58,350 nucleotides of DNA from a virus. The position numbers were made by a program, and so were the translations under genes. The stretch lies in IMG/VR virus record IMGVR_UViG_3300029815_000015, positions 1 to 58,350 of that record; one strand, written 5' to 3'. The notes beneath the pieces were generated by a model that saw only the letters and a list, made by a program, of their open reading frames with translations, did no database searches and was not told the DNA's origin. Shown in pieces: positions 8,395-49,528 of the stretch (positions are counted from its first letter, which is position 1; each line of letters opens with the position of its first letter).

Positions 8395-8427
8395 AAAAAG
8401 ACTGTTAGTGTGCCGTCACTAACAGTC
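8395..8427 (-). terminator. Intrinsic terminator (minus strand)
   Basis: 11-bp perfect stem GACTGTTAGTG/CACTAACAGTC with a 6-nt loop. T5 follows only on the minus strand. Confidence 0.75.
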
Positions 8428-8774
8428 CTTTACCCCAATTTTTATACCGTATGCACTTTGCAGTCTTTCGACGCATTGTACGACACCAATGCTTCTTAAA
8501 GCACTCTGCCACTTATGCAGTTTGGGTTCAGCATAATTTATTGCCATTAGTTGGCAGATTGCAAGGAACAAGCGGTGTAGTGTGACAAATATCGGAATGT
8601 CAACCTCGAGTTTTTAACGAACTTCTCTGTTCGGCTACGCTACACTTGATGTTACATTTTACTCCATTTTAACGTGCTGTGGCTTCACGATTGCGACCTT
8701 GCAAATGCGGAACAGGCAAATTCAAAATTGCTTTCAAGGTATACACCTCCTAAGATGAATTTACCTAAAATGGC
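8396..8774 (-). ncRNA. Candidate ~380-nt non-coding (or 22-codon leader-peptide) RNA in the immunity region
   Basis: Bounded by a consensus promoter (8809..8781) and the terminator (8427..8395). No ORF above 22 codons. GC-richer than the flanks, with many local hairpins. Confidence 0.5.
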
Positions 8775-35839: not shown

Positions 35840-36415
35840 TCAGATGATACACAAATGATTTTTCAATGCGTTCTCAACACGTTTTTCACTGATACTGATA
35901 TATCTTTGCGTTGTCGAACTGGATGAGTGCTGTAGCAGGTGACGCACCAGTTCAATATCATAATCGTTATTTAGGTACATTTCCGTAGCGTATAACTTAC
36001 GAAAACTGTGTGTTGATATTCCGTCAATTCCAAAGAAATCTGCTACGATTTTCAATTGTTTCTGTACGGCTCTTTCGCTGATTGGAAAGATTCTTGCAGT
36101 TGGTGAAATGCCGTTATCCTCGGTGTACTGCTTTAAGAACTGAAATAATTCAGTTGGAACCGTGAAGTTTCTTCCCTTGCCGGTTTTTTGCTCTACAATA
36201 TCCAGATGATAGCGGCCGCTCTCGTATACTACGTCTGAAAGCGTAAGGTGCAGTATATCAGAGATTCTAACTCCTATGTTGGCTTGCACTACCAGTAATG
36301 TCGCAAGCCGTTTGTTTGGCTTGAATACGTGTTCTCCGTAATTGAAGCCTTTGCGGATTGCAGTTATGATTTCTTTGTAGGTTTCCTTGTCTAATGCTTT
36401 TGTCTTTTTGTTCAT
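35840..36415 (-). CDS. Small tyrosine recombinase, catalytic domain only (191 aa)
   Basis: ..ANIGVRISDILHL.., THSFRKLYATEMY, LLQHSSSSTTQRYI. ATG 36415 preceded by AAGGAG. Confidence 0.8.
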   Translation of the reverse strand: MNKKTKALDKETYKEIITAIRKGFNYGEHVFKPNKRLATLLVVQANIGVRISDILHLTLSDVVYESGRYHLDIVEQKTGKGRNFTVPTELFQFLKQYTEDNGISPTARIFPISERAVQKQLKIVADFFGIDGISTHSFRKLYATEMYLNNDYDIELVRHLLQHSSSSTTQRYISISEKRVENALKNHLCII

Positions 36416-36455
36416 GCTGAACGCTCCTTTCTTTTTACGCCCGGTAAGCAAAATA

Positions 36456-37220: not shown

Positions 37221-37272
37221 AAATATATACCGCCCTTCTGTTTTTAATTTTTTATGCCCTAAAAAGGGGAAA

Positions 37273-37312
37273 AGCAAGCCGGGGAATCGAACCCCGGTAA
37301 ATCCGACTTGCT
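37273..37312 (-). ncRNA. tRNA acceptor/T-arm minihelix-like element (also positioned as a terminator)
   Basis: Minus strand: AGCAAG-tcggattta-CCGGGG-TTCGATT-CCCCGG-CTTGCT followed by TTTCCCCTTTTT. GGTTCGATTCC is the canonical T-loop. Confidence 0.5.
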
Positions 37313-37318
37313 AAAATA

Positions 37319-39591: not shown

Positions 39592-39722
39592 AAGGGCAGA
39601 TATTAAAATACTGCTCTGGAAACAGTAGCATACAGACGGCAGCAAACGCTGACGCAAGATGATAACTTTTTATTTTTCTTGTGTTGGCGTTTTTTATTTT
39701 TGTAATGTTTGGAGGTGATGTT

Positions 39723-40295
39723 GTGAAAGATAACACGATTAAAAGCGAAGTAGGTATTGAGGTATATCAGAACGATATATATAGACTGGTGGATGAATAT
39801 ATAGATACCGAACTAGATGGAGATACAGAAAGTGTATCAGATAACTTTGTATCTATGATTTTTTACATTGCTGATAATATTCAAAAACCTAGTAATGATG
39901 ATATAGACTTACTGGATGATATATTTAATATTTATGTCCGTATATGTGCTAAGTATAAAGTATTACCAACACTGGAAGTATTTAGTTTTTTAGTTGGTAT
40001 TGATAGAAATACATTTACAGATTGGTCTATGGGTAGGTATAGGGTTAGCACTGCACATGGTAGCACAGTCAAAAAATGGTTTAATATTTGCAAATCTTTC
40101 ACGCTTAACCGCTTGCATAACCAGACCGGAACAAATTCCAATCTGATATTTATTGCAAAGGCGGCTTACGGTATGGCTGAAACTGCTCCGGTGCAGGTCG
40201 GCAACCAAAACAGCCAATCATTAGCAGATAGCGAGCTTCCAAAATTGACAAATCCGGCACAGGAAGTCATTGAAATCGAACAAAAAGACGGATAA
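39723..40295 (+). CDS. Terminase small subunit candidate (190 aa)
   Basis: GTG start after GGAGGTG. Position at the head of the packaging block. ..TLEVFSFLVGIDRNTFTDW.. HTH-like. No strong motif. Confidence 0.4.
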   Translation: MKDNTIKSEVGIEVYQNDIYRLVDEYIDTELDGDTESVSDNFVSMIFYIADNIQKPSNDDIDLLDDIFNIYVRICAKYKVLPTLEVFSFLVGIDRNTFTDWSMGRYRVSTAHGSTVKKWFNICKSFTLNRLHNQTGTNSNLIFIAKAAYGMAETAPVQVGNQNSQSLADSELPKLTNPAQEVIEIEQKDG

Positions 40296-40781: not shown

Positions 40782-40926
40782 CGAAAAACAGTGTTGTGGA
40801 AATTGTAAATATGCTGCATATAGCCGTGAGAATTGTTATGTGTGTGAGAATATGGACAGTTACTATTTAGCTGATTATGTCGAACACGACCACGGATGCG
40901 AAGAGTGGAGGAACCGTGATGATTAG
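40771..40926 (+). CDS. Cys-rich small protein (51 aa)
   Basis: CCGNC..C..C pattern. Overlaps the neighbouring ORFs. Read by eye. Confidence 0.35.
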   Translation: MDDNEKQCCGNCKYAAYSRENCYVCENMDSYYLADYVEHDHGCEEWRNRDD

Positions 40927-41080
40927 TTTTTTGATTCGATACATTGCTGTGGTTTATTTTGGATTCATGGTGGTAGTTTCGTTTTTGAACATAGTGTTAG
41001 GCGAAAAACCTCGTGAGAGAATAATGTCAATAATCAATTTTTGTGCGTCCATTGTGGCGATATATTTTATAACTCATTAA
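40919..41080 (+). CDS. Small membrane protein (53 aa)
   Basis: ATG 40919 after GGAGGA. Two hydrophobic helices. Confidence 0.5.
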   Translation: MISFLIRYIAVVYFGFMVVVSFLNIVLGEKPRERIMSIINFCASIVAIYFITH

Positions 41081-41398
41081 GAGTTTTACCATATCCCTTG
41101 AACTCTTAAACGTGATAAGGAGTGTGAATCACAAAGAGGGGCAATGTATATCCGTTCTAGCCGAGAGCGAATCGGAATACAACACCGGCAATTCGGTGTA
41201 TATGGTTTGTTCATGTTTTTTGCTTTTGCATGAACCTTTCTTGACCCACTAGCGGAAAGCTGATTAAAGGACCGTCACAAGGTCCGGTGGGGTTTATGGT
41301 TTCGTTGCGATAGTTTCCAGTGTCCAAAGTAGCCGGACGCAAAAGAATCGCAACAGTGCGGATTAAAACACAGATGCATGTATGTCAATCCGTACTTA

Positions 41399-41478
41399 CG
41401 GCGATAGCATAATGGATAATGCGTTGTGTAGAATCCCACTATACACAAAGAATCGTGGTTCAAATCCACGATTGCCGA
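41399..41478 (+). ncRNA. Non-canonical tRNA-like element 1 (80 nt)
   Basis: 7-bp acceptor CGGCGAT/ATTGCCG. D-arm GCAT-AATGGATA-ATGC. T-arm CGTGG-TTCAAAT-CCACG. The anticodon arm is 7 bp with an 11-nt loop (or 7 bp with a 7-nt AAUCCCA loop in a shifted register). Confidence 0.5.
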
Positions 41479-41560
41479 TTTCCCCGATAGAGGGGATGAT
41501 GCAATGCAAAGGTACCTAGAATTTTCTTGTTTTGCGATATAATCATTAGTCATTTGAATG

Positions 41561-41670
41561 TGATGTGTGGTGGAAAGGGTAGACGCAGGAAACCACAAGT
41601 ACGATGCCAAAGTGAGCCGAAAGGATATGGACAAAGGCATCATGTGAGGTTCGATTCCTCACCACATCAA
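41561..41670 (+). ncRNA. Non-canonical tRNA-like element 2 (about 110 nt)
   Basis: 7-bp acceptor TGATGTG/CACATCA stacked directly on a 6-bp T-arm GTGAGG-TTCGATT-CCTCAC. The internal arms (GTGG..CCAC; GATGCC..GGCATC with a 27-nt loop) are irregular. Confidence 0.45.
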
Positions 41671-41832
41671 TGTTCCGGTTCGCTACCGGATAAGCAAGCG
41701 TTTCGGTATTCCTTGCTGAAATAATTAAAATGCTTGTGTTGGTTGTCTGACAGTAGAGTATGGACAGAATAGTAATAAGTGACCGGATAATACTTTCCAA
41801 CACAAGAAACCGAATATAACTGGAGGTGTAAA

Positions 41833-42303
41833 ATGGCAAGTATTATTAAAACTTACAATTTCAAAAACGGAAGAACGATTGATACAGATGAAATTCATTA
41901 CGCAAACGGAGAATTTGTTTCTCTTGAAGATTACAAAATTGAAAGAGAAAAAAATTTTTGTCTTGAAAGTAAATTAGATAAATACGTTAGATTGCATTCA
42001 AGATTTACTGATTCTGCACTAAGAGATTTCGATAGCGGAGATTATGCGTCGTTGTGTGTTTTAACAATAAGTGAATTATCCGGTTATAAAGACAGAATAG
42101 AAGAATTAGAAAATGAGATACATACCATGGATTGTTTCTCAAACCCTTTGGACGTTGTCAAAATGCTTACTAGCGCAACGTGCGAAGTGAAAAATCCATC
42201 TATTGGAGAACCACCAGAAACAAAAAAATATACCATTGATGAGTTAAAACAGATTGCAGAGTATTTGCTTGTCTACTGCAAGCATAACAAAGAAGATGAA
42301 TAA
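41833..42303 (+). CDS. Hypothetical protein (156 aa)
   Basis: SD GGAGGTG upstream of ATG. Confidence 0.6.
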   Translation: MASIIKTYNFKNGRTIDTDEIHYANGEFVSLEDYKIEREKNFCLESKLDKYVRLHSRFTDSALRDFDSGDYASLCVLTISELSGYKDRIEELENEIHTMDCFSNPLDVVKMLTSATCEVKNPSIGEPPETKKYTIDELKQIAEYLLVYCKHNKEDE

Positions 42304-43709: not shown

Positions 43710-44345
43710 ATGAAAAAGATACCTACGTTGTTTGAAAGAAAATATATAAGCAATTGCGTTGTAGAAACACTTCCAATTGTAACAAAAGGTATGGAATGGG
43801 TTTTAAATGGAGACGGAGTCGCAACGGTAAAATTTGATGGTTCATGTTGCGCGATTATCAACGGAGAATTTTACAAGAGATATGACGCAAAGAACGGTAA
43901 ACCAGTTCCAAAAGGAGCTATTAAATGTCAGGAAAAGGCAGACCCAATTACAGGGCATTTTCCATGTTGGGTAAAAGTTGATGATAAGAAACCGGAGGAT
44001 AAGTGGTTCAGAAAAGCATATGATACTGCAATGCAGTGTTGTTTAAGTCCTTTAACTGATGGAACGTATGAAGCGGTTGGAAAGCATTTTAATGGAAACC
44101 CGTACAATAAAGATTATGATGACCTTGTTCCGCATGGAAGAATCATTGTTGAAGTAGAACGAACCTTTGATGGAATTAAAAAATATCTATCCGAACATTA
44201 CGTAGAGGGTTTGGTGTTTTGGAAAGACGATATTCCTCAATGCAAAATTAAAAGGTCGGATTTTGGATTTGAATGGAACAGTAAACAATTAAATTGCCGA
44301 TTATCGGCTGAAAGGAAATGCTATGAATGGAATAATGATAGATGA
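43710..44345 (+). CDS. Minimal ATP-dependent nucleic-acid ligase-like protein (211 aa)
   Basis: Nucleotidyltransferase motifs: I VKFDGS, IV EGLVFWK, V CKIKRSDF. There is no room for an OB domain. Confidence 0.6.
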   Translation: MKKIPTLFERKYISNCVVETLPIVTKGMEWVLNGDGVATVKFDGSCCAIINGEFYKRYDAKNGKPVPKGAIKCQEKADPITGHFPCWVKVDDKKPEDKWFRKAYDTAMQCCLSPLTDGTYEAVGKHFNGNPYNKDYDDLVPHGRIIVEVERTFDGIKKYLSEHYVEGLVFWKDDIPQCKIKRSDFGFEWNSKQLNCRLSAERKCYEWNNDR

Positions 44346-44496: not shown

Positions 44497-44595
44497 AAAA
44501 ATCCCGGCTAACAAACGGAGTTAGTCGCTAACCTAGAAAAATTATAGGCAGGATGCCTATTATAGCATCTCTGCTTGTGTGGAGGTGCTTTTTTA

Positions 44596-47352
44596 ATGCA
44601 TACAATTGAAGATGAGAAAAATATAAAAGAATACGAAAAATACATATTACGAAATGGTATAGACCGTAGTGTAATAGATGCATATTGCGAAGCAAGTAAA
44701 ATTATACTTTGCGGAAGAAAAGACCGTGAATATGGATTGAAAGTTTCTACAAGAGCAAAAGAACTGATTTTTGAGTATATAAAATCAATTACAAATGGTG
44801 CTGATTTTAATTGGCTTGAAACGCAATCTCAAAAAAACAAGCAGTCGTATGATATTTTAGATAAATATTACGATTTGCTGCTTTATGAAGCACCTTACAT
44901 TCTTGATAGTTACATTCTTTACATAGAAAAAAACAGACCTAAGAAAGAAAGATTTTACGAGCCTAGAAGAAAAACACTCAAACAAGTTTCCGATAAGTTG
45001 CAGGAACTTGAAGATGGAAAACTTGACGAATTGTTTATTCACATGCCGCCAAGGGTTGGAAAACTTATTTCGGATGATACACCAGTATTTACGAGTAAAG
45101 GTTGGAAAAAACACGGAGATTTAAAGGTTGGAGATTTGGTTGTTGGTTTGGATGGTAGATATGTAAAGGTAATTTGCGTTCATCCAAAACACCACACAAC
45201 GCATACTGTTTTTCTTTCAAATGGAGAAAGTATAGATTGTCACGAAGACCACGAATGGACGGTTTTTGACAGAAGAAGCGGAAAATATAGAACAGTAGAG
45301 ACAAAACAACTAATCGGACACTTAAAAAACGGAAATAGAAATAATTTCATGTTACCACACAAACCAATGATGGATGGAGAGTATAAGGAAAATCTTAAAG
45401 TACCTCCTTATGTTCTTGGTGCTTGGCTTGGAGATGGTACAAATAGAAAACCATTTATTACGGGTGATAAAAACGACCACGCAATAATAGATAAAATTGT
45501 TAGGCTTGGTTACAAAGTAGAAAGAAAGTACATACATAAAACAACGGGGGTTGTTACGTATGGGTTTGGAAGAAAACTTGTAGATGGATTAAGATTTTAT
45601 AATATGTGTTTTTATACACATACTATGCCTAAACATATACCGGTTGATTATTTAACTGCGTCAATAGACCAAAGATTAGAATTACTTGCGGGTCTTATTG
45701 ATACAGACGGTTGTTTTATAAAAAAAGAAAACAGATACCAATTTACGACCGCTGATGAGTTATTGAAAAATAATTTTGAAACTCTTGTAAATTCATTTGG
45801 ATGGAGATGCTGCACTCAAGAGATTGAGCCAAGAACATCATCAAGCGGAATAGTTGGCAGAAAAAAATATTGGAATATATCTTTTAATCCAACAGAACAT
45901 ATCCCTTGTGCTCTTTATAGAAAGAAAATTTACGAATTTTCTGAAAAAAGAAGAGTTGCTATTTGTGATATTAAAGAGAGCGAACATAAAACTGGTAACT
46001 GCATAACAGTTGACAGCGAAGATGGATTATATATGATTGGAAAAACTATGATTCCAACTCATAATTCGCAGATAATAACACTTGCTATGTCATGGCATTG
46101 TGCAAAAGACGCAGAAAAAAGCAATTTGTATGTGACATACAAAGAGGGATTAGGCGGAGCATTTTTAACTGGTGTCATGGAAATCTGGACAGACCCAACA
46201 TATTGTTTTTCCGATGTATTTCCAAAAGTAAAAGTTGCTGATACGGATTCAAAAAATCATAAAGTAGACCTTGCGAGAAAAAAGAAGTATAAAACACTTT
46301 CTGGAAAAGGATTAGAAAGCGGACTTAACGGAGAATATGACGCTTACGGATGGATGGTATTGGATGATATTCTTGAAGGTATTCAAGATGTGCTTAACAC
46401 GGACACACTCAAACGAAAGCAGATTATCTTTGACAATAATGTAATGTCACGTAAAAAGGAACAGTGCAAACTAATCCATAATGGTACAATTTGGAGTTTG
46501 CACGACCTTTATAGTGATAGATTGGATTTCTTGCAGAATAACCCAGAAGCAAAAAATATCAGATATGACATTTTAAAGATACCGGCTTTGGACGAAAACG
46601 ATGAAAGCAACTTTGATTATGATTACGGTGTTGGATATACAACGCAATACTACCGAACGTTAAGAGCAAAGTTTGAAGAAAATGATGATATGGCATCTTG
46701 GTACGCACAGTATCAGCAGGAACCAATTGAAAGAGACGGTGCAGTTTTTAATCCAGAACATATGAGATTTTACAATGGTGTATTGCCGGAAGAAGAACCT
46801 TACAGAATATGTGCGGCTTGTGACGTTGCTTTAGGCGGAGAAGATTTTCTTGCATTTGCGGTAGCTTATATGTACGAGGATGGTTCAATTTACATTGACG
46901 ATGTTGTTTTCGACAACAGTGAAAAGAAAATAACAAAACCTAAAGTAGCAAACATGATTATTGATAATGACGTTGGAAGTGCGTTTTTTGAAGCAAACCA
47001 AGGTGGAGAGGGATATAAGGATGAAATCGAAGAATTACTAAAGAAAAAAGGACGAAAAATAAATCTACGTTCTGAATATGCACCTACAAACATGAGAAAA
47101 GCGCAAAGAATATGGGATAAGGCTGGAAGTATTAGAGAGTTTTATTTCCGTGATGTTGGATGTCGAAGTCAGGAATACAGAAAATTTATGACAAATTTAT
47201 ACAGTTTTACGGTTACTGGGAAAAACAAACATGAGGATGCGGCGGATTGCCTTGCGTCTTTAGCATACTTCATTGAGGGAAATTGGAGTATGGCAAAAAT
47301 AGAAGTTCCAAAAAACCCATTTAGAGGAGGTTATAGAAATTATGGATACTAA
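44596..47352 (+). CDS. terL: Terminase large subunit containing an intein (584-aa extein + 334-aa intein)
   Basis: ATG after GGAGGTG. Walker A PPRVGK|S is split by the insertion. C-terminal nuclease-like half. Followed by the portal gene. Confidence 0.85.
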   Translation: MHTIEDEKNIKEYEKYILRNGIDRSVIDAYCEASKIILCGRKDREYGLKVSTRAKELIFEYIKSITNGADFNWLETQSQKNKQSYDILDKYYDLLLYEAPYILDSYILYIEKNRPKKERFYEPRRKTLKQVSDKLQELEDGKLDELFIHMPPRVGKLISDDTPVFTSKGWKKHGDLKVGDLVVGLDGRYVKVICVHPKHHTTHTVFLSNGESIDCHEDHEWTVFDRRSGKYRTVETKQLIGHLKNGNRNNFMLPHKPMMDGEYKENLKVPPYVLGAWLGDGTNRKPFITGDKNDHAIIDKIVRLGYKVERKYIHKTTGVVTYGFGRKLVDGLRFYNMCFYTHTMPKHIPVDYLTASIDQRLELLAGLIDTDGCFIKKENRYQFTTADELLKNNFETLVNSFGWRCCTQEIEPRTSSSGIVGRKKYWNISFNPTEHIPCALYRKKIYEFSEKRRVAICDIKESEHKTGNCITVDSEDGLYMIGKTMIPTHNSQIITLAMSWHCAKDAEKSNLYVTYKEGLGGAFLTGVMEIWTDPTYCFSDVFPKVKVADTDSKNHKVDLARKKKYKTLSGKGLESGLNGEYDAYGWMVLDDILEGIQDVLNTDTLKRKQIIFDNNVMSRKKEQCKLIHNGTIWSLHDLYSDRLDFLQNNPEAKNIRYDILKIPALDENDESNFDYDYGVGYTTQYYRTLRAKFEENDDMASWYAQYQQEPIERDGAVFNPEHMRFYNGVLPEEEPYRICAACDVALGGEDFLAFAVAYMYEDGSIYIDDVVFDNSEKKITKPKVANMIIDNDVGSAFFEANQGGEGYKDEIEELLKKKGRKINLRSEYAPTNMRKAQRIWDKAGSIREFYFRDVGCRSQEYRKFMTNLYSFTVTGKNKHEDAADCLASLAYFIEGNWSMAKIEVPKNPFRGGYRNYGY
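45064..46065 (+). mobile_element. Intein with LAGLIDADG homing-endonuclease domain (class-3-like)
   Basis: Starts LISDDTPV.. right after GK. Block B ..HEDHEW... LAGLIDADG motifs LGAWLGDGT and LAGLIDTDG. Block F GNCITV. Ends ..IPTHN|S. Confidence 0.8.
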
Positions 47353-48088: not shown

Positions 48089-49528
48089 ATGTTTAAGTAT
48101 TATGGAAAAAACATAAGACCGTTTACGGCAGTAAATCAATGCAATTTTGGAAGAAAAGTAATTTCTACAAATAAATCCAAAATTACAAAATTAAATATTG
48201 TCGAAGAATTAAACAAGGCACTTTCGATTCACAAGCAGAATACAAAAGAAATCAATTACCTTGATAGATATTACAGAGGAGACCAGCCTATTTTATACCG
48301 TAAAAAGGTAAATAGACCGGAGGTAAACAACAAACTTGTTTTAAATCTTGCTTATGAACTTGTTGAACGTAAGACTGCTGAAATATGTGCAGAGCCTATT
48401 CAGTATGTGTTACGTGGAACAGACGATAAGAAATCAGAAGAGATTACGGAACTGAATGTCACGATGGATTCTGAAAGCAAGCAAGAAGTAGATATTGATA
48501 TTTGCCGTTGGCGAAGTATTTGCGGTACGGCTTATAGATTTGTTGGAAATGACAACGGAAACGGAGATTTGCTTGACGAAAGCGACTTTGCTTTGTTTTC
48601 GGAAGACCCACGCTATACGTTTGTTGTTTATTACTCAAATAGAAAACCCGCATTTTCTTGTCAAATTAGAGAAGATGAAAGCGATAATTCAATATACTTT
48701 TGCTATACGGAAAGAGAGTATTTTGAAATTGTTGACGGAAAAATTAAAAGTAGTGGGTTGAACGGAAATAACGCTATTCCGGTTGTGGAATATCCAAATA
48801 ATGCAAGAAGGTTATCGGATATTGAGATTACAATTTCTATTACGGATTCAATCAATACATTATCTTCTGACCGGGTAAACGGAATTGAGCAGTTTGTTTC
48901 CGCATGGATTAAATTTGTGAATTGTGAGATTGACAAAGAAACATTTTCACAGATGAGATTAGAGGGTGCTTTAGTTGTTAAATCAAACAATGGCGAAAAT
49001 AAAGCCGACGTTGATGTAATGACAAATGAGTTGAACCAAACAGAAAGTCAAGTTGTTTTTGATGATTTGTTTGAAAGGTTTTTGAGCATTCAAGGATTGG
49101 CTAATCGTTCCAACAACAATGCCGGAGGTGATACTGGAAATGCAGTAAACCTACGAAACGGACATTATGATGCAGGACTAAGAACGGCAATCAACGAACC
49201 GATACTAAAAAAATCGGAAAGAATGGCTCTTAGAATTATACTAAATCGTTTGCGCATAAAGCGAAATTTTACGCTTATGCCAAGCGACATTGAAATACAT
49301 ATCAACCATAATAAAATAGATAATCTGCTTACAAAATCAGGAGCACTTAAAATGTTACTTGAAGCAGGGGTTGATTACAAAAGGGCAATTAAAACTGTTG
49401 ATTTGTTTAGTGACAGTGAGGCGGTTGCACTTGAATCAAAAGACAGAATGGAATATCTGTACCCGACAAGTAAGGATGTTGTAACAGAACCAAATAACAA
49501 TCCAGTAAATAAAGAGGTAGTCGAATAG
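48089..49528 (+). CDS. Portal protein (SPP1 gp6-like)
   Basis: 479 aa downstream of terL. ..LDRYYRGDQPILYRKK..NNKLVLNLAYELVERKTA.. resembles SPP1-type portals. Confidence 0.8.
   Translation: MFKYYGKNIRPFTAVNQCNFGRKVISTNKSKITKLNIVEELNKALSIHKQNTKEINYLDRYYRGDQPILYRKKVNRPEVNNKLVLNLAYELVERKTAEICAEPIQYVLRGTDDKKSEEITELNVTMDSESKQEVDIDICRWRSICGTAYRFVGNDNGNGDLLDESDFALFSEDPRYTFVVYYSNRKPAFSCQIREDESDNSIYFCYTEREYFEIVDGKIKSSGLNGNNAIPVVEYPNNARRLSDIEITISITDSINTLSSDRVNGIEQFVSAWIKFVNCEIDKETFSQMRLEGALVVKSNNGENKADVDVMTNELNQTESQVVFDDLFERFLSIQGLANRSNNNAGGDTGNAVNLRNGHYDAGLRTAINEPILKKSERMALRIILNRLRIKRNFTLMPSDIEIHINHNKIDNLLTKSGALKMLLEAGVDYKRAIKTVDLFSDSEAVALESKDRMEYLYPTSKDVVTEPNNNPVNKEVVE

Follow-up and report, generated by a model that had tools for sequence, protein, structure and literature searches.

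A probable tRNA-gene island of a temperate gut phage with separately folding small RNAs, including tRNA mimics without an anticodon

Phage tRNA genes are now mostly interpreted in one of two ways, as codon supplements or as replacing tRNAs that host defences have destroyed. The species 1 and 2 RNAs of phage T4 (rnaC and rnaD), from the tRNA array of that phage, are stable, and we know of no function for them. GOLLD and ROOL lie in prophages next to tRNAs, and the Y-RNA-like YrlA mimics the T arm and the D arm of a tRNA in its internal part, while its ends form a Ro-binding stem. Here we describe a gap of about 750 nucleotides (nt; positions 41081–41832) in the window, that is, the whole 58,350-nt stretch of DNA analysed (positions 1–58,350 of IMG/VR virus record IMGVR_UViG_3300029815_000015). 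The gap holds two tRNA-like elements, element 1 (41399–41478) and element 2 (41561–41670), and is probably the tRNA-gene island of a temperate gut phage of ~58 kb, encoding separately folding small RNAs on the + strand, non-decoding tRNA mimics among them. What would be left of the island in the window is a 47-nt motif, element 1, element 2 with a lineage-specific long arm, and a closing 3' module of hairpins and a long stem. The gap is non-coding, it is syntenic with tRNA arrays, and each of its modules covaries at the RNA level. Its two tRNA-shaped modules have an intact elbow (U8, A14, G18G19 and a UUCRA T loop) and no 7-nt anticodon loop.

No credible open reading frame (ORF) was found on either strand of the gap, which agrees with the initial annotation of this DNA. 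An exact 26-mer of element 2 together with the downstream protein retrieved 46 IMG/VR loci with the same non-coding stretch, and 36 distinct versions were compared among these close relatives (93–99% identity). The record IMGVR_UViG_3300045988_115108 is 99.9% identical to the one analysed here. They showed indels of 2, 4, 1, 11, 20 and 185 nt in the gap, none of them a multiple of three, and as these break every frame, the short ORFs of the gap are not genes. The + strand of the gap was predicted to fold at −232.7 kcal/mol, compared with −199.5 ± 6.9 for shuffled sequences (z −4.84), and the − strand gave z −3.74. The signal was uneven along the gap, with z −5.99 at 41300–41398, −3.45 for element 1, −2.97 at 41672–41725 and −2.42 for element 2; the segments 41081–41228, 41200–41300, 41479–41560 and 41725–41832, folded alone, did no better than shuffles (z −0.6 to −1.4). 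All twelve helices listed in the initial annotation are complementary, with one G·U pair included in 41356–41364/41387–41395, and a covariation check across relatives found at least five modules with compensatory changes; together with the folding energy, these changes bear out its view that the gap is structured RNA on the + strand. The changes lie in the stems 41209–41235, 41245–41291, 41674–41690, 41693–41717 and 41733–41806 and in both tRNA-like elements. The helices 41079–41107, 41182–41199, 41304–41354, 41356–41395 and 41481–41496 were seen only in relatives of 93–99% identity. Among the stem substitutions of close relatives, seven of the eight informative tabulated pairs are G·U-compatible on the + strand only (A-U to G·U or C-G to U·G), the exception being an A·C mismatch at 41362/41389 in one relative. 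As the substitutions are mostly G·U-compatible only on the + strand, an RNA from this strand is favoured; all tRNAs neighbouring loci of the element-2 family described below are co-oriented with it.

More distant relatives, found via the RNA ligase encoded downstream (63–75% identity), keep the gene order, and because they fill the same gap with ordinary tRNA genes, we regard the gap as the tRNA island of this phage. In locus L047 the gap contains tRNA-Gln(UUG), tRNA-Ile(UAU) and tRNA-Tyr(GUA) along with an element-2 homologue of 157 nt that has the same ends, and in L049 it contains tRNAs for Gln, Glu and Ile. Sister phages carry two to seven ordinary tRNAs in the slot (Gln, Ile, Tyr, Glu and Ser among them), typically with Gln-UUG first and Ser-GCU last, interleaved with the same modules. 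A normal tRNA-Ser(GCU), held in a 185-nt insert after element 1, was found in 12 of the 36 distinct versions from close relatives. The lineage of the window has lost the ordinary tRNAs of its island. In Dulem virus 39, whose portal protein is 77% identical, the island was left unannotated: its record marks neither these RNAs nor ordinary tRNAs, and spurious small ORFs were called over them.

Element 2 (41561–41670, + strand) consists of an acceptor stem (UGAUGUG/CACAUCA), U8 and G9, a Leu-type D arm (GUG-G-AAAGGGUAGA-CGC), a core, and a 3' part with a 6-base-pair (bp) T stem (GUGAGG/CCUCAC), the T loop UUCGAUU and A73, CCA not being encoded. In the core, 16 unpaired nt are followed by a long arm (GAUGCC..GGCAUC) tipped by CCGAAAGG and then by AU. 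The window copy thus has the acceptor stem, U8, A14, G18G19, T loop and A73 of a tRNA-Leu scaffold. It has no Leu anticodon stem-loop, whose place after the D stem is taken by the 16 unpaired nt here and by a mini-hairpin of 3–5 bp in relatives, and element 2 is not a decoding tRNA because it has no anticodon at all. Neither ARAGORN nor Rfam (E ≤ 10) called a tRNA, tmRNA or YrlA in element 2, and a few longer relatives barely reached 34–36 bits with the Rfam tRNA model. R1, a covariance model of the element-2 scaffold, matched the window with 52.3 bits (E 4e-13, model positions 1–58) at exactly 41561–41670. An intron reading was rejected, since no anticodon stem-loop could be rebuilt from the flanks and the cores of 36 nt consist of two mini-hairpins.

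The D-arm string TGGCGNAANGGGTANACGC, used as a search pattern, was found in at least 120 IMG/VR contigs, and 150 of the 156 listed pattern matches (96% of the raw matches) close into an acceptor and T-arm architecture. The family is built of a 7-bp acceptor, U8 and G9, a D stem GCG/CGC with the loop (G)AA.GGGUA.A, a variable core of 29–258 nt, (C/U)AUG, the T arm and the acceptor's 3' strand. Its T arm has a 5-bp stem plus an invariant outer G:C pair, and the loop UUC(G/A)A(U/A)U. Among the matches listed there were 89 distinct members; the extra G:C pair is present in 79, none of which was called a tRNA by ARAGORN, and absent from 10, three of them ordinary tRNA-Leu(UAA) or similar genes. 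In alignment A2, which comprises 57 distinct scaffolds with the window copy as row 1, 99.0% of the cells were paired and 247 cells were changed on both sides, versus 79 ± 10 in shuffles; the covariation score was 0.69, versus 0.17 for shuffles and at most 0.15 for slid controls. Changes on both sides affected six of the seven acceptor pairs and four of the six T-stem pairs, and at least 17 different acceptor stems occur in the family. U8, A14, GGG and the UUC.A of the T loop were invariant in all 57 scaffolds. The cores are unrelated between lineages, conserved and structured within a lineage; typically, a mini-hairpin of 3–5 bp right after the D stem precedes a long arm, which stops two bases short of the T stem, and in no family core was a conserved 7-nt anticodon-type loop found.

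The setting of the family is that of tRNA genes. Members encode no CCA, and in 40 of 58 the base behind the discriminator is U; this combination is the pattern of RNase Z substrates in Firmicutes. Among the matches listed, tRNAs lie no more than 1.5 kb from the element in 46 of 89 family loci; all of them share its strand, and the distance is often 4–15 nt. The element is usually the last in a same-strand tRNA array, often 4–15 nt after tRNA-Ser(GCU) or another tRNA. Bacterial genomes (185,579 species) yielded four copies, two in Lactobacillaceae, one in Enterococcus and one in a Lewinella metagenome-assembled genome, and two of the four lie inside tRNA arrays. The family is absent from Rfam 15, and a literature search found no description of it; some of its members may be among the unnamed "tRNA-like structures" mentioned in a 2023 catalogue of ~8,500 candidate RNAs from IMG/VR.

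Compared with the described systems, element 2 is a tRNA-like non-coding RNA in an ordinary setting, a phage tRNA island, and it is not a tmRNA, YrlA, tRNA-Sec or allo-tRNA. By analogy, its nearest functional counterparts are the T4 species 1 and 2 RNAs, which like element 2 are small non-decoding RNAs and share the strand of the phage tRNA array at whose 3' end they lie, and of which rnaC ends in a tRNA-type T arm (CCGGGUUCGAAUCCCGG). They differ from it in lacking a Leu-type D arm, in their sizes and in their hosts. Homology to rnaC or rnaD is unsupported, as R1 matches only the T arm of rnaC (12.6 bits) and tRNA-Ser (22.7 bits) in the T4 tRNA region. With tmRNA, element 2 shares acceptor and T arms that enclose a large non-tRNA insert at the anticodon region; it differs in its third pair, which is A3-U70 instead of G3:U70, in having a true D stem, in lacking pseudoknots and a tag ORF, and in family cores that go down to 36 nt. 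YrlA is a non-coding tRNA mimic that occurs also in phages (PMC4201824). The ends of element 2, in contrast, form an acceptor stem; it has no Rfam match to YrlA, and the flanking genes that were scanned include no Ro/Rsr gene. Allo-tRNAs and tRNA-Sec, which have acceptor/T geometries of 8/5, 9/4, 8/4 and 9/3 and some of which occur in phages (PMC5389517), resemble it in their long extra arm and non-canonical stack (not 7/5); the geometry of element 2 is 7/6.

Two strings of T4 recall parts of the window and its relatives. The 5' end of rnaD (L170, AF158101, 71053–71171) contains ACCGGGTCGCTACCGGTAAG, a hairpin almost identical to H1 of the window, TCCGGTTCGCTACCGGATAAG (41673–41693), and rnaC contains UUGCCGUAAG, a string that some element-2 cores (L123) also carry immediately behind the D arm. 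These likenesses could be due to chance or to distant kinship.

The closest match among decoding tRNAs is to class II tRNA-Leu, with which element 2 shares the 7-bp acceptor, U8 G9, the D arm GCG-G-AA.GGGUA.A-CGC, a long arm 5' of the T stem, the T loop UUCRAWU and, in the window copy, A73. It differs in the missing anticodon stem-loop, in a T stem that is lengthened at its base by an invariant G:C pair, which makes the stack 7/6 instead of 7/5, and in a central domain that ranges from 36 to 257 nt. On these grounds element 2, and perhaps element 1, could be a chargeable tRNA mimic that feeds a non-ribosomal or tmRNA-like reaction or titrates the leucyl-tRNA synthetase (LeuRS). The D arm UGGCGGAA(A/U)GGGUA(G/A)ACGC is the same as in the true phage tRNA-Leu(UAA) genes of L061 and L119, U8, A14, G18G19 and the T loop are invariant, and the window shares A73 with every member of the TGATGTG type. 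Moreover, a truncated tRNA-Leu is still chargeable when A73 and the D/T contacts are retained (PMC9976931). However, 25 of 58 members have a discriminator other than A (A in 33, U in 20, C in 4 and G in 1), and near-identical members of the GTCACTG type differ from one another in having A or U there. The U1-A72 pair and a 13-bp acceptor/T stack are also atypical, the cores, some of only 36 nt, have no tag-like ORF or resume-codon structure, no tmRNA was found by ARAGORN or Rfam, and no transferase gene is linked. A chargeable mimic is therefore an unlikely explanation, and since the discriminator is not conserved across the family, leucylation of element 2 itself is held to be just as unlikely.

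Element 1 (41399–41478, + strand) has a 7-bp acceptor (CGGCGAU/AUUGCCG), a D arm with GG, the T loop UUCAAAU and A73, and it matches the Rfam tRNA family (RF00005) over its full length with 37.9 bits (E 3.6e-06), above the gathering score of 29 bits. Its anticodon arm is replaced by a 25-nt hairpin (41424–41448, + strand) with a 7-bp stem and an 11-nt loop, GAAUCCCACUA, carrying AAUCCCAC; it has no 5-bp anticodon stem with a 7-nt loop that carries U33 and a readable anticodon, 15 nt standing in the place of this loop in the Rfam alignment. The two-nt linker U8,N9 is absent as well, a single A lying between CGGCGAT and GCAT, which appears as a deletion in the model alignment. ARAGORN called an implausible tRNA-Ser(aga) and no tmRNA in element 1 and made no call in element 2. 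Both tRNA-like elements of the initial annotation were thus recovered at their positions, element 1 by the tRNA model and element 2 by R1, and neither is an ordinary tRNA gene. A homologue of element 1 in L093 is 73% identical and has the same AUCCCAC loop, with compensatory changes in the acceptor (UGGCAAU/AUUGCCA) and the T stem (CAAGG/CCUUG). In other relatives the AUCCCAC-loop hairpin is free-standing, on three unrelated stems (CGUGUAU/AUACACG, CGUGCAU/AUGCACG and GGUCGAGUG/CACUUGACC). Because the same loop occurs free with unrelated stems, element 1 is best described as a tRNA scaffold that presents a conserved hairpin, not as a decoding tRNA. A pairing of the AAUCCCAC loop with GUGGGGUU (41287–41294) is possible in the window; it fails in relatives and was dropped.

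The 47-nt motif (41245–41291, + strand) is a three-way structure with a P1 stem (CCCAC/GUGGG), a hairpin AGC-GGAAA-GCU and a hairpin GGACC-GUCACAA-GGUCC, the last having the general form NNNCC-GUCACAA-GGNNN. In alignment A4 (nine sequences), 96.8% of the cells were paired and seven of the 14 pairs were changed on both sides. The motif has no Rfam match (E ≤ 10) and occurs in at least 120 IMG/VR contigs. Among the matches listed there were 45 distinct variants with at least seven different P1 stems; the motif lay less than 200 nt downstream of a tRNA-Gln(UUG) in 75 of 96 loci, AUCCCAC followed it within 90 nt in 56 of 96, and only 15–27 of 91 loci also matched R1.

The 3' module begins with two hairpins (41674–41717, + strand), H1 (UCCGGU-UCGCU-ACCGGA), which is followed by AUAAG, and H2 (AGCAAG..CUUGCU), which is followed by an invariant CUGAAAUAAUUAAAAUG. 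A 10-bp long-range stem, CUUGUGUUGG/CCAACACAAG (41733–41806, + strand), then encloses 54 nt and ends 27 nt before the downstream start codon. In alignment A1, of 10 sequences, pairs of H1 were changed on both sides in 4, 1 and 3, and an A-U pair of H2 became G-C in 3. The module is 76–85% identical in seven more distant phages, and H1, H2 and the long stem all covary; L113 has a wholly different complementary 10-bp stem (UCAAUAGCGG/CCGCUAUUGA) and L149 a change from U-A to C-G. In L036 (9193–9240) a tandem duplicate of H1 was observed, in which the 20-nt insert CCAGTTCGCTACTGGATAAG is a compensated copy, with CCAG/CTGG in place of CCGG/CCGG.

The initial annotation had proposed that the gap forms one large ornate RNA, of the GOLLD or ROOL kind or of a new class, in which the tRNA-like domains are embedded in a single fold. 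GOLLD and ROOL resemble the gap in being carried by phages or prophages near tRNA genes, and in several hundred nt of dense structure. The low folding energy of the whole + strand (z −4.84), the known occurrence of these RNAs in prophages beside tRNAs and the module order, which is fixed in many phages (Gln tRNA, hairpin, 47-nt motif, AUCCCAC hairpin, element 2 and 3' module), would all suit such an RNA. A cmscan search of 40900–42000 was carried out on both strands with all 4227 families of Rfam 15 at E ≤ 10, and of the whole window at gathering thresholds. The region gave only tRNA and a chance match to SpR14, so that no family other than tRNA is represented on either strand, and ROOL, GOLLD, HEARO, tmRNA, YrlA and group I or II introns were rejected as candidates, no match to these or to another large-RNA model being found there at E ≤ 10. 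The whole window gave only FuFi-1, outside the gap. On 12 related loci, Rfam found only tRNAs, one permuted tmRNA elsewhere, int-alpA and DUF3800-VIII, and blastn against 50,697 GenBank phages gave no match to the gap region or to a GTCACTG-type member of the element-2 family. Moreover, the structure of the gap is modular and divisible: modules occur in one another's absence, ordinary tRNAs intervene in varying number (as in L149, where a further tRNA stands between element 2 and the 3' module), and indels of 185, 20 and 11 nt are tolerated between modules. The inter-module helix of the minimum free energy fold (41174–41180/41706–41712) is missing in relatives that keep the 3' module, and comparison supports just one long-range pairing, that of the local 10-bp stem at 41733–41806. 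Given that the same slot is a tRNA gene array in sister phages, that its structured pieces recur independently, and that one contiguous conserved fold of ~580–800 nt, as in ROOL and GOLLD, was not found, a single large RNA is most improbable.

Further unusual tRNA-like genes were observed in related islands. L053, L081, L106, L126 and L162 carry a tRNA with the anticodon UUA, called "tRNA-Stop(tta)" by ARAGORN, ~250–350 nt after the element-2 homologue; it looks like an ochre suppressor and hints at readthrough or recoding of TAA in part of the phage group. A 71-nt tRNA-like RNA in L047 (3493–3563) reaches 42.7 bits in Rfam and is rejected by ARAGORN. Genes with odd anticodon arms, called "Asn(att)" and "Leu(caa)", lie just 5' of the element in L056, L123 and L087 and ~340–360 nt 3' of it in L134 and L135. 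Non-decoding tRNA shapes seem to be common in this phage group.

The elements could also be decaying tRNA pseudogenes with leftover spacers and no function of their own. The lineage lost tRNAs that its relatives kept, an 11-nt deletion removes half of a conserved stem in the window, and other aberrant tRNA-like genes litter related islands. Such decay is at odds with scaffold pairs that are kept via compensatory changes over at least 17 acceptor types, with the invariance of the bases that make tertiary contacts, and with a stretch that stays 93–99% identical beside a swapped gene; in addition, the 47-nt motif and the AUCCCAC hairpin covary or are conserved in phages with full tRNA sets. We consider decay quite unlikely.

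The swapped gene marks the 3' edge of the island. At least three unrelated genes stand in for the gene at 41833–42303 in phages (L009–L046) that are nearly identical in other respects, while the adjacent non-coding stretch stays 93–99% identical, and the mosaic junction lies near 41817, just past the conserved long stem; as the switch point comes directly after this stem, the 3' edge of the island is a recombination junction. A role at the level of DNA or of the mRNA in cis, as a pac or cos site, as a boundary for module exchange by recombination or as a 5' leader of the downstream gene, would be compatible with conserved sequence that stops at this junction (~41817) with unrelated genes beyond, with a gap located between a terS-like gene and TerL, and with a long stem that ends 27 nt before a start codon and is followed by an invariant GAAAC. 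Substitutions that preserve only G·U pairing favour a + strand RNA over DNA cruciforms, the tertiary bases of a tRNA would make no sense for a DNA site, and the 3' module is kept before different downstream genes and so is not specific to one gene. This kind of explanation is very unlikely for the gap as a whole; the 3' module alone may have a role in cis.

If the gap is a tRNA-gene island with separately folding RNAs, as we favour, it would be transcribed together with the flanking + strand genes, and RNase P and RNase Z would cut out the tRNA-shaped RNAs as they do CCA-less tRNAs, after which these would be given CCA. The products would be stable tRNA mimics unable to decode, in which the acceptor/D/T scaffold provides processing and stability and the variable arm, or the AAUCCCAC loop, is the working part. 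They might act as a decoy or sponge for tRNA-binding host factors, or as a presented ligand, and the flanking hairpins may be signals for processing or stability. A decoy or sponge role would fit the RNA ligase that adjoins the island and the RtcB in the same slot of Dulem virus 39. More tentatively, element 2 may represent a widespread, as yet unannotated class of anticodon-less Leu-type tRNA mimics with a 13-bp stack and a fast-exchanged effector arm, which with element 1, as the presenter of AAUCCCAC, and the 47-nt motif would form a toolkit that manipulates or decoys the host tRNA-binding machinery, maybe alongside the phage RNA ligase; its targets could then be, for example, tRNA-directed defence nucleases, toxins that modify CCA ends, or LeuRS.

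Several points weigh against these proposals. We infer transcription, processing, CCA addition and stability from the DNA sequence, and what we propose as the effector role is guesswork. A scan for promoters and terminators gave none that was convincing for the island, several helices in the 5' third are supported by close relatives only, and the paired fraction in alignment A2 is somewhat inflated because members were collected by requiring six of seven and four of five pairs, a rule that 96% of the raw matches nevertheless passed. The discriminator base varies even between near-identical members. With the sixth T-stem pair, the acceptor and T stems would stack over 13 bp, and RNase P, RNase Z or the CCA-adding enzyme may measure such an RNA differently. 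An antisense role of the cores was rejected, with one or two complementary ten-mers in the phage against ~2.7 expected by chance. As to a protein partner, no cluster extended beyond one phage lineage among 1,701 neighbouring ORFs from 79 loci, and Pfam searches of representatives of the neighbour clusters gave only MazG, HTH_36 and DUF1642. Finally, the window copy of element 2 could be impaired, because the 11 nt GGTGCCTTTGC directly 5' of it, at 41560/41561, are missing (as in L001 and L028) and are present in 33 of 36 relatives. In relatives these nt belong to a stem of 12–13 bp (GCAAAGGUACC/GGUGCCUUUGC) that reaches as far as the first base of element 2, with TATAAT inside it, and that shows a compensatory GA/TC change in L002 and L020; in the window an orphan 5' half, GCAAAGGTACC, is left (41506–41560, + strand), with the 3' half GGTGCCTTTGC deleted and TATAAT in the loop. 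The TATAAT pointed out in the initial annotation is indeed there (41538–41543); its reading as a promoter was rejected, since it has no −35 element, the scan yielded no site on the + strand, it lies inside this conserved stem-loop, and it is not conserved, being TATAAC in seven of 36 relatives.

Neither the codon-supplement nor the replacement reading of phage tRNA genes explains this island, because the tRNA shapes that were kept cannot decode. The element-2 family keeps the parts that are read by the processing enzymes, the CCA-adding enzyme and LeuRS, and its central arm is swapped between lineages, a pattern that would be expected of a natural tRNA scaffold or decoy. Its many natural variants may offer a way into the role of non-decoding RNAs in phage tRNA clusters, a question that goes back to the description of the T4 species 1 and 2 RNAs. 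The annotation of gut phage genomes would benefit from three covariance models, one each for element 2, the 47-nt motif and the 3' module.

The remaining structures of the gap are hairpins on the + strand. The first (41079–41107, AAGAGTT/AACTCTT) overlaps the stop codon of an upstream ORF of 67 amino acids (aa), and is invariant in close relatives apart from one loop change. Two predicted hairpins at 41145–41199, TGTATATCCG..CGGAATACA and ACACCG-GCAATT-CGGTGT, take the place of the tRNA-Gln(UUG) of sister phages, and the second was listed as terminator-like by the scan. The next hairpin (41209–41235, GTTCATG/CATGAAC) has a counterpart in relatives, GTTCGGGG/CCCCGAC, directly after tRNA-Gln; the entire stem is exchanged there for another complementary stem, and the indels of close relatives fall in the loop. 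Two strong adjacent hairpins at 41304–41395, GTTGCGAT..ATCGCAAC and GTGCGGATT..AATCCGTAC, keep their pairing in close relatives by A-U to G·U changes at 41310/41348 and 41362/41389, and are only partly alignable to more distant relatives. Directly after element 1 lies the hairpin TCCCC-GATAGA-GGGGA (41481–41496), in which C to U changes in relatives keep G·U pairs.

Nearly all genes of the ~58-kb phage genome are on the + strand. Upstream of the gap lie a weak terS-like gene (39681–40295), 0.8 kb away, and three small ORFs, the last of which ends at 41080. Downstream, seven small ORFs precede an RNA ligase of the DUF5565/RLIG1 type (43710–44345, + strand; phrog_14301, 1e-54), 2 kb from the island, which is followed by TerL (44575–47352, + strand; 925 aa, with a LAGLIDADG insert), 2.7 kb from the gap, and an SPP1-type portal gene (48089–49528). 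The earlier placement of the gap between packaging genes is loosely right in that it is flanked by the terS-like gene and TerL; the terS-like match is weak, and the seven small genes and the RNA ligase intervene before TerL. In Dulem virus 39, the closest GenBank phage, an RtcB ligase occupies the equivalent slot before the terminase (L171, 7960–9165), and given the RNA ligase of the window, an RNA-repair enzyme seems to be a fixture of this phage group.

Three further features of the window were observed. The TerL protein contains a LAGLIDADG_3 domain at residues 365–417, and TerL of relatives measures 579–582 aa; because of this domain, the gene probably carries an intein or homing-endonuclease insert. 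A full-length FuFi-1 RNA (RF02986, 135 bits) lies on the − strand at 8396–8558, in the only stretch of the 5' half with near-zero GC skew. Finally, a minihelix on the − strand at 37271–37313 (AGCAAG..CCGGGGTTCGATTCCCCGG-CTTGCT; 18 bits with R1) resembles the acceptor and T arm of a tRNA without D or anticodon arms; it lies near a tyrosine-integrase fragment of 203 aa (35840–36451, − strand) and may represent an attP core whose source was the 3' end of a tRNA.

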